Positions 936 through 1,277 of a DNA stretch of 2,040 nucleotides are shown in pieces. Positions within the stretch are counted from its first letter, which is position 1. The number at the start of each line of letters is the position of its first letter. This DNA is from Escherichia coli. Its GTDB lineage: Bacteria; Pseudomonadota; Gammaproteobacteria; Enterobacterales; Enterobacteriaceae. The stretch is from the NCBI RefSeq assembly GCF_003334335.1, contig NZ_QOWQ01000094.1. The stretch is one strand, 5' to 3'. Position numbers and translations under genes: made by a program. The notes beneath the pieces were generated by a model. That model saw nothing but the letters and a program-made list of their open reading frames with translations, did not search any database and had not been told where the DNA came from.

Positions 936-940
936 AACAT

Positions 941-973
941 AAAAAAATCCCGCAGTGATCGCGGAGCTGCGGG
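941..973 (-). terminator. Rho-independent terminator of the candidate sRNA, placed 6 nt past the I stop codon
   Basis: Minus-strand CCCGCAG (973-967) pairs with CTGCGGG (955-949) as a 7-bp GC-rich stem with an 11-nt loop, followed by A then UUUUUUU (947-941). The + strand has no T-run after the hairpin, so it is strand-specific. Confidence 0.6.
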
Positions 974-1038
974 GACAGACAAATGAAGATTAATGTTAAG
1001 GAGTTGTTTTTGTTACTCGGGCAAAAAAACACTAACGC
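941..1038 (-). ncRNA. Candidate small non-coding RNA (~95 nt), antisense to the tail operon, in the I-J spacer
   Basis: Bounded upstream by a minus-strand promoter (-35 TTCACA 1072-1067, 16-bp spacer, -10 TATAAT 1050-1045) and downstream by a minus-strand intrinsic terminator (stem 973-967 / 955-949, then A plus seven U at 947-941). Predicted RNA: GCUGCGUUAGUGUUUUUUUGCCCGAGUAACAAAAACAACUCCUUAACAUUAAUCUUCAUUUGUCUGUCCCCGCAGCUCCGCGAUCACUGCGGGAUUUUUUU. It has no ATG, and no start codon with a Shine-Dalgarno in the right place. The exact 5' end is a guess (purines at 1041 and 1038). Confidence 0.5.
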
Positions 1039-1044
1039 AGCGAA

Positions 1045-1072
1045 ATTATAAGCGCCACAGTCAGTGTGTGAA
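1045..1072 (-). promoter_or_regulatory. Sigma70-type promoter driving the candidate sRNA
   Basis: Read on the minus strand: TTCACA (5/6 to TTGACA), 16 bp spacer CTGTGGCGCT..., then a perfect TATAAT. An A/T-rich stretch lies immediately upstream (minus-strand AAAAATTCTGAATATC, about 1096-1081), in the position of an UP element. No extended -10 TG. Confidence 0.55.
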
Positions 1073-1140
1073 AATGTGAAGATATTCAGAATTTTTATGC
1101 CATTACCGGTTTTAACCAACAGGATTATCGGTGGGCATGA

Positions 1141-1180
1141 AAGAAAACCCCGGTATCTGCTGATACCGGGGTTTCTGTTT
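1141..1180. terminator. Bidirectional intrinsic-terminator-like hairpin in the I-J spacer
   Basis: AAACCCCGGTATC (1145-1157) and GATACCGGGGTTT (1162-1174) form a perfect 13-bp stem around a 4-nt loop TGCT (1158-1161). The + strand continues TTTCTGTTT and the minus strand continues TTTTCTTTC, so a GC-rich core stem is followed by a U-tract on either strand. Confidence 0.5.
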
Positions 1181-1265
1181 AGCATGGCAGAAATGTGTTT
1201 CATGCTTTTCGGGCGAAGGATATCCGACTTCTGTACGGAATGGCAAGTGGCGGTTAATTTATTCA

Positions 1266-1273
1266 GGGGAAGG
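1266..1273 (+). promoter_or_regulatory. Probable ribosome-binding site of gene J
   Basis: GGGGAAGG ends 4 nt upstream of the J ATG at 1278. Confidence 0.5.
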
Positions 1274-1277
1274 CTGT

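Follow-up and report, generated by a model that had tools for sequence, protein, structure and literature searches.

In a lambdoid prophage, what fills the gap between the tail genes I and J when that gap is much longer than in lambda? The question was raised by a stretch of 2,040 nucleotides from Escherichia coli (RefSeq assembly GCF_003334335.1, contig NZ_QOWQ01000094.1), the whole of which is referred to here as the window, and in which positions 936-1277 separate the two genes. The original prediction took this spacer for a horizontally acquired 'moron' module with an RNA as its cargo. The analysis indicates that the spacer very probably contains the PasB gene, whose product is a small RNA (sRNA) of prophage origin that depends on Hfq and acts by base pairing. 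The RNA cargo is not new, as PasB has already been named and described.

The left half of the spacer and the PasB gene

PasB (pathogenicity-associated sRNA B) is known from enteropathogenic E. coli (EPEC) strain E2348/69, where it was found by ligating and sequencing interacting RNAs (RIL-seq) and gave a Northern band of the expected size (Pearl Mizrahi et al., Sci Adv 2021, PMC8550237). Table S6 of that paper lists it as an 83-nt RNA of prophage PP6, encoded between E2348C_1436 and E2348C_1437. According to the same source, PasB has 37 RIL-seq partners, is expressed more highly in non-activating conditions and is strongly reduced in an hfq mutant (log2 fold changes of -6.8 and -2.4). In the available part of the RIL-seq data, it is always RNA2 in chimeras, with a 3' end at 1466260/61 that corresponds to window positions 940/941. 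A recent preprint (Zhu, Shabalina and Storz 2026, bioRxiv 10.64898/2026.05.13.724894) places PasB within a phage structural-gene operon and reports 1,158 BLAST hits.

E2348C_1436 and E2348C_1437 are the homologues of I and J, and PasB lies 6 nt past the I stop in E2348/69. The window has the gene at the same I/J position, antisense to the late operon. Over 936-1098, the two sequences differ only at positions 991, 997 and 1092, and they diverge beyond 1098. Within the sRNA itself 81 of the 83 positions are identical, the mismatches being those at 991 and 997. The published 23-nt Northern probe AATCCCGCAGTGATCGCGGAGCT matches the window exactly (23/23) at 946-968 on the plus strand; hence the detected RNA is a minus-strand transcript. 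The segment 936..1098 is also the sole part of the spacer common to the window and the PhiR12 phages, and this PasB module and the right half assort independently. The window copy thus shares with EPEC PasB the promoter, the terminator, the strand and the position after the I stop and upstream of J. It differs by two substitutions in the seed and by being joined to a 179-bp segment, module B, that is missing in E2348/69.

A promoter scan found three sites, as compared with 0.7 expected, and the PasB promoter (Table 1) is one of near-consensus sequence on the minus strand. A consensus scan of the plus strand of the spacer gave no promoter. The claim that the spacer carries its own promoter and terminators and no protein held, with the qualification that the promoter and the PasB terminator are predicted on the minus strand; no conserved open reading frame (ORF) was found. 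The U-tract of the PasB terminator (947..941) finishes 5 nt beyond the I stop codon. From the promoter, a putative start at ~1040-1037 and a primary transcript of ~98-100 nt are predicted.

Table 1. Coordinates of features in the 2,040-nt window
Feature	Position	Strand	Basis and details
Tail gene K, 3' part (C40 peptidase)	1..357	+	Truncated by window edge; ORF end at 357, annotation of homologous records
Tail assembly gene I	255..935	+	ORF; RefSeq 'tail assembly protein' with identical stop
PasB module (terminator, sRNA body, promoter, AT-rich upstream linker)	936..1098	-	Alignment to E2348/69
PasB intrinsic terminator (predicted)	941..974	-	Scan (965..949 + T-run) and folds; stem CCCGCAG 949-955 / CTGCGGG 967-973
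PasB sRNA as reported, 83 nt	1023..941	-	NC_011601 1466343..1466261, minus strand, mapped by alignment
Predicted seed region, RNA ACAACUCCUUAACAUUAAUCUUCAUUUGU	979..1007	-	Duplex predictions with RIL-seq partners
Predicted sigma-70-type promoter of PasB	1072..1045	-	-35 TTCACA 1072..1067, 16-nt spacer, -10 TATAAT 1050..1045; 11/12 consensus match
Module B, non-coding J leader, 179 bp	1099..1277		Alignment, genome search
10-bp GC-rich hairpin	1144..1180		Stem 1148-1157/1162-1171, loop TGCT, T-runs on both strands; folds with z of -5.0 and -6.3
Weak promoter-like site	1217..1246	-	TTGCCA-18-TATCCT, 9/12, promoter scan
Tail tip / host specificity gene J, 5' part	1278..2040	+	Truncated by window edge; gpJ in homologous records

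A family of alleles that includes EcOnc22/23/24

The I-J spacers of Shiga toxin (Stx) phages, PhiR phages, enterohaemorrhagic E. coli (EHEC) and other E. coli were compared and supplemented by a scan of IMG/VR with the linker AAATGTGAAGANNTTCAGAA, which gave at least 120 loci. From the combined spacers, at least 51 different sRNA modules were obtained, which fall into seven or more allele classes. Common to the classes are the AT-rich upstream linker and the -35 element, with the -10 element present in most alleles. The RNA begins with CUGCGUUA followed by a U-run, continues with AACUCC(U/A)UAA and UUAAUCUUC, and ends in a terminator followed by a further U-run. The body and the loop vary between classes. 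The terminator stem occurs as CCCGCAG/CUGCGGG, as CCCACAG/CUGUGGG, which differs by one compensatory pair, or as CUCCCG.../...CGGGAG. Folded one sequence at a time, all 29 distinct 3' ends of the family were predicted to form a 3' hairpin with a U-run after it, shifted in one of them. When 24 alleles were aligned by MAFFT, RNAalifold did not arrive at a consensus structure because the divergent terminators were misaligned.

Two IMG/VR contigs (L038, at 8302 and 8772, and L070, at 9949 and 10128) have two copies each of the conserved linker. A second PasB-like module stands in tandem in two I-J spacers (271 and 562 nt after the linker), probably those of the same two contigs.

Prophages Sp15, Sp14 and Sp11 of EHEC Sakai have identical 240-bp I-J spacers with another allele (L016 692-931, L017 423-662 and L018 473-712, respectively). 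Three RNAs of this strain, EcOnc22/23/24, were reported as ~85 nt on a Northern blot and destabilised in an hfq mutant (Tree et al., Mol Cell 2014, PMC4104026). Their coordinates fall inside the Sp15, Sp14 and Sp11 spacers on the antisense strand. The versions of the Sakai record are offset by ~+140; the offset was calibrated by the AgvB Rfam match. The probe sequence bore out the placement, as its first 23 nt (GGGAGAGAACGATGAAGATTAAC) match the late-operon-sense strand of the Sakai spacer. Location and probe match together identify EcOnc22-24 as PasB-family sRNAs. As in the window, they lie at the same junction on the antisense strand and have the upstream linker, the -10 element, the U-run, AACUCC.UAA, UUAAUCUUC and the CCCGCAG/CUGCGGG terminator. 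The body has diverged, however, with CUCCAUAACGUUAAUCUUC as the seed, and the Sakai spacers are without module B. PasB is thus one allele of a larger family of I-J-junction sRNAs that includes EcOnc22/23/24, a connection absent from Table S6 of PMC8550237 and from the preprint of Zhu et al. (2026).

A parallel outside the junction is offered by the anti-sRNAs AgvB and AsxR (RF02702 and RF02703), which like PasB are short Hfq-binding sRNAs of lambdoid prophages, are transcribed towards the late genes from a conserved moron site and form an allelic series with conserved and variable parts. Unlike PasB, they are encoded downstream of PR' near the stx and lysis genes and not in the tail module, are 51-60 nt long, are conserved in the 3' part but variable in the 5' part, and sponge core sRNAs. 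Neither Rfam model matched the window at E<=1, whereas the AgvB model does match Sakai Sp10. An AgvB-like reading, suggested by the resemblance of the CA-rich AACAAAAACAAC to a GcvB target site, was rejected on the location of AgvB/AsxR downstream of PR' and the lack of an Rfam match. A further ground was that no GcvB-PasB chimera was present in parts 1 and 30 of the 40 parts of the RIL-seq table. Also rejected was svsR, a prophage NC-SV sRNA, which is unrelated and is located where cI has its 3' end.

Seed pairing, proposed action and alternatives

The sites of six of the strongest RIL-seq partners were retrieved, and local duplexes with PasB were computed in windows against dinucleotide-shuffled controls. 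Windowed duplexes were used since RNAduplex applied to PasB and its targets at whole length gave meaningless full-length duplexes. For four of the six partners (napF, map, caiF and fabR/yijD), the best local duplex fell on the same segment of E2348/69 PasB, ACAACUCCUUCACAUUGAUCUUCAUUUGU (nt 34-62, window 1007..979). The energies were -26.2, -21.6, -22.9 and -17.3 kcal/mol, with z values versus shuffles of -5.8, -3.2, -2.8 and -1.6, respectively, so that three beat the controls. In the window, this seed region includes the anti-Shine-Dalgarno-like CUCCUUA and the conserved UUAAUCUUC. Start codons or Shine-Dalgarno sequences are overlapped by the sites in napF, caiF and yijD. The location of the sites in initiation regions and the anti-Shine-Dalgarno-like CUCCUU in the seed make Hfq-assisted pairing at translation initiation regions the most likely mode of action. 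As to the partners themselves, the available part of the RIL-seq table shows them to be reproducible, in up to three of three libraries and with odds ratios of 28-62 (PMC8550237).

Both substitutions in the window copy, at 991 and 997, lie inside the seed, where the RNA reads UUAAC/UUAAU as compared with UUCAC/UUGAU in EPEC PasB. With the window variant, predicted napF pairing weakened from -26.2 to -16.9 kcal/mol, and that of map, caiF and fabR/yijD fell to chance. As judged by these predictions, the target set of the window variant may differ from that in EPEC.

Among the rows for non-activating conditions in the available part of the table, the odds ratio is highest for a partner in the Mu-like prophage PP9 of E2348/69 (L015 805-930), where a gp16-family gene adjoins the gene that follows it. 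Pairing at this site would use the CA-rich ACAAAAACAAC and not the main seed. The PP9 partner hints at prophage-to-prophage RNA cross-talk.

On these grounds, the following course of events is proposed. The constitutive-looking sigma-70 promoter would start minus-strand transcription near 1040-1037, directed against the late operon, and the intrinsic terminator would stop it at 941, the reported mature form being 1023..941. In a lysogen, with the late operon silent, PasB would bind Hfq via its terminator and U-tail. The single-stranded segment 1007..979, CUCCUU(A/C)ACAUU(A/G)AUCUUC and partly anti-Shine-Dalgarno, would then pair with mRNAs of the host and of the accessory genome, mostly at translation initiation regions of unlinked mRNAs. 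By analogy with other Hfq sRNAs, the translation or stability of the target mRNAs would be altered. We infer where transcription starts, which segment is the seed, in which direction targets are regulated and that the target set of the window variant is shifted.

Several points weigh against the assignment to PasB and against trans action. Expression, Hfq dependence and mRNA chimeras were shown for the E2348/69 copy only, and the cited PasB papers report no direct regulatory effect on any target. Likewise, the targets of EcOnc22-24 were given as unknown in a 2021 review. Seed pairing was not above chance for two of the six partners, E2348C_2648 and hflX. The predicted length of ~98-100 nt disagrees with the published 83 nt, which would mean processing of the 5' end or imprecision in one of these figures. 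An Rfam scan of the window (E<=1) gave no matching sRNA model for PasB, and family membership hence rests on sequence identity. A sub-threshold match to a Streptococcus sRNA model (26.8 bits versus a gathering score of 48) is terminator-like and was dismissed. Lastly, the PasB fold showed no excess stability over shuffled sequence (z of -1.1 to -1.5). Such a fold is common among sRNAs of the seed type but lends the reading no support.

The strongest alternative is that PasB acts mainly in cis, pairing with the late I-J mRNA, to which it is perfectly complementary, after induction or colliding with its transcription and so modulating J or the I/J ratio. The arrangement speaks for it: in all of ~130 loci examined the gene is set within the late operon but on the other strand, its promoter is directed at I, its terminator ends 5 nt past the I stop, and its position is kept while the sequence varies among at least seven allele classes, suggesting that location matters. 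Any antisense gene would, however, be complementary to the operon regardless of its sequence, which leaves the retention of CUCCUUA and UUAAUCUUC unexplained. Moreover, the RIL-seq data, in the available part, show many trans partners in uninduced EPEC, and pairing with unlinked genes persists even though body and seed vary across alleles. A mainly cis-acting PasB is unlikely, although the invariant position makes a cis-antisense role plausible, and such a role would be compatible with trans action. Conversely, the late mRNA could mop up PasB.

It is considerably less probable that the spacer is structural punctuation only, consisting of terminator or stabiliser hairpins, with the RNA as functionless noise. 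A hairpin and a T-run do precede J in every compared I-J spacer, including the 60 bp of lambda, and the cited papers report no PasB phenotype. Against this stand the near-consensus promoter, an abundant and Hfq-dependent RNA in two pathotypes, and partners that are reproducible in the available RIL-seq data and pair above chance. In addition, tail genes can be expressed without the extra 180 bp, as is shown by the short spacers of lambda and Gifsy-1.

That the spacer encodes a small protein is hardly credible: the plus-strand ORF 983-1051 (MKINVKELFLLLGQKNTNAAKL) and a 128-aa minus-strand ORF (916..1302) are both open in the window, an N-terminal 'MKINV.ELF' recurs in several alleles, and a hypothetical protein is annotated here in one phage record and lies under the match in another, but the former ORF was rejected because, of 115 loci, about half have ACG or ACA in place of the start codon and because its length is unstable (6-50 codons, with frameshifts), the latter is interrupted in related loci (L011 and L012) and spans two terminators, no conserved coding sequence was found in the spacer, and none of the four inspected RefSeq E. 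coli chromosomes with a 337-343-bp spacer has any annotation there from the Prokaryotic Genome Annotation Pipeline (PGAP).

The I-J junction as an insertion site and the J leader

The gap of 342 bp that had been claimed was borne out, since the I-like ORF ends with TAA at 933-935 and GGGGAAGG stands directly before the J ATG at 1278. Homologous phage and RefSeq records agree with this in gene annotation and gene boundaries, and lambda I aligned to 255-926 of the homologous stretch. The spacer of E. coli 2018-166 (NZ_CP075632) is 100% identical to that of the window. The corresponding gap is 60 bp in lambda (I end 15444, J start 15505), precisely as stated in the original prediction, and 61 bp in Gifsy-1. 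The GC content of 936-1140, estimated there at ~41%, was computed as 0.405; the flanks are indeed richer, at 0.578 (1-935) and 0.579 (1278-2040). The whole spacer has a value of 0.433 and its left part, 936-1098, of 0.387.

The start of I is inconsistent between records, being placed at 255 as in lambda or at 354 in RefSeq/PGAP. From the ATG at 255, the I frame shares 103 nt with the end of K, as annotated in lambda.

The spacer is not the end of a longer I or the beginning of a longer J, as the I stop and J start are the same in every compared locus. Nor is it present in essentially all lambdoid K-I-J loci, as the gaps of lambda and Gifsy-1 show. Of 271 phage records homologous to K-I-J, about 116 show 60-80% identity. 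The full-coverage matches listed in this band (lambda, 21, cdtI and Gifsy-1) are ~290-325 bases shorter than the window, which is consistent with a short spacer of ~60 bp.

Extra DNA between adjacent genes and a distinct base composition, both expected of a moron, are thus present. A promoter and a terminator of its own are present by consensus, and we infer their function from PasB expression in uninduced EPEC. A protein-coding cargo useful to the lysogen, the remaining mark of a moron, is lacking, as no conserved ORF was found. With an sRNA as cargo, the spacer holds a moron-like RNA module and not a classical moron. The proposal of a horizontally acquired moron with an RNA cargo was therefore essentially right as to extra DNA, odd GC content and RNA, with the corrections that the RNA gene is antisense to the late operon, that the spacer is not one insert and that the RNA is already known. 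The spacer consists of the PasB module (936-1098) and module B (1099-1277), a J-leader module, which assort independently of each other.

The I-J junction is a true moron insertion hotspot. In the Stx2a phage Stx2_EH1846 (L004 936-1786), it is occupied by sodC on the minus strand. Like other protein-coding morons (Juhala et al. 2000), this sodC shares extra DNA, signals of its own and atypical composition with the window, and like PasB it is lysogen-expressed, opposite in strand to the late operon and located exactly at the I-J junction. In contrast, the cargo of the window is a non-coding RNA of ~83-100 nt and no protein. The sodC breakpoint lies just upstream of a PasB-like body, in place of its -10 region, and this body remains downstream of sodC and the sodC terminator.

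Module B has been found joined to different left alleles. It takes the place of the more usual ~70-bp segment with a hairpin and a T-run that E2348/69 and most Stx phages have between the conserved linker (window 1066-1096) and J. A search of complete E. coli genomes found module B in 1446 of 5426 (27%), always at >=95% identity and never annotated. In IMG/VR it lies directly upstream of J in all of 113 loci; there are seven variants (in 112 copies by one count), and 95 copies are identical. Among the 35 fully flanked loci, the mean pairwise identity of module B was 99.8%. The final 300 nt of I reached 97.0%, the initial 300 nt of J 98.2% and the sRNA module 87.0%, so that module B exceeds both neighbouring genes in conservation. 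No conserved ORF was found in module B.

The stable hairpin of module B (1148-1171; Table 1), which is surrounded by an 8-bp inverted repeat, looks from its sequence like a bidirectional terminator and a functional analogue of the hairpin and T-run that stand before J elsewhere. Together with the weak promoter-like site at 1217..1246, it could, speculatively, define a minus-strand RNA of ~72 nt (~1210..1138). Module B could be a control element of the J leader, an insulator or a second antisense sRNA, or it could simply reflect a recent sweep.

A GC-rich hairpin followed by a T-run was seen on the late-operon strand just before J in every I-J spacer examined, with unrelated sequences; examples are window 1144-1180, lambda ~947-975 (L002), Gifsy-1 (L009) and the Stx phage spacers. 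In Stx phage spacers of 245, 254 and 259 bp, the heptamer CAGACAT occurs in variable copy number directly upstream of the J ribosome-binding site (L005 ~1150-1185 as compared with L008 and L006), a length polymorphism that might tune J translation.

Two further readings, taken jointly, are put forward tentatively and are doubtful as a pair. In the first, module B may be a functional element, either a riboregulatory leader or insulator for J or another antisense sRNA, for which the bidirectional hairpin would form the end. In the second, the I-J junction may be a multi-allelic, recombining sRNA locus, at which PasB, EcOnc22-24 and at least five further classes combine a shared promoter/terminator scaffold with different seeds.

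A reading of the sequence alone had thus correctly pointed to the gene of a regulatory RNA that a prophage carries concealed among its structural genes. PasB is among the most connected accessory-genome sRNAs in EPEC, with partners that include the virulence genes map, cesD2, bfpB and espC. Since the common variant represented by the window differs inside the seed, target lists from EPEC may not transfer to it. The present analysis ties PasB to EcOnc22/23/24 of EHEC, as alleles at one phage junction that have a scaffold in common and differ in their seeds. It also adds a nearly invariant, unannotated 179-bp J leader, which some 27% of complete E. coli genomes carry. If the locus is indeed multi-allelic, phages would swap host-targeting specificities there much as they swap tail fibres.

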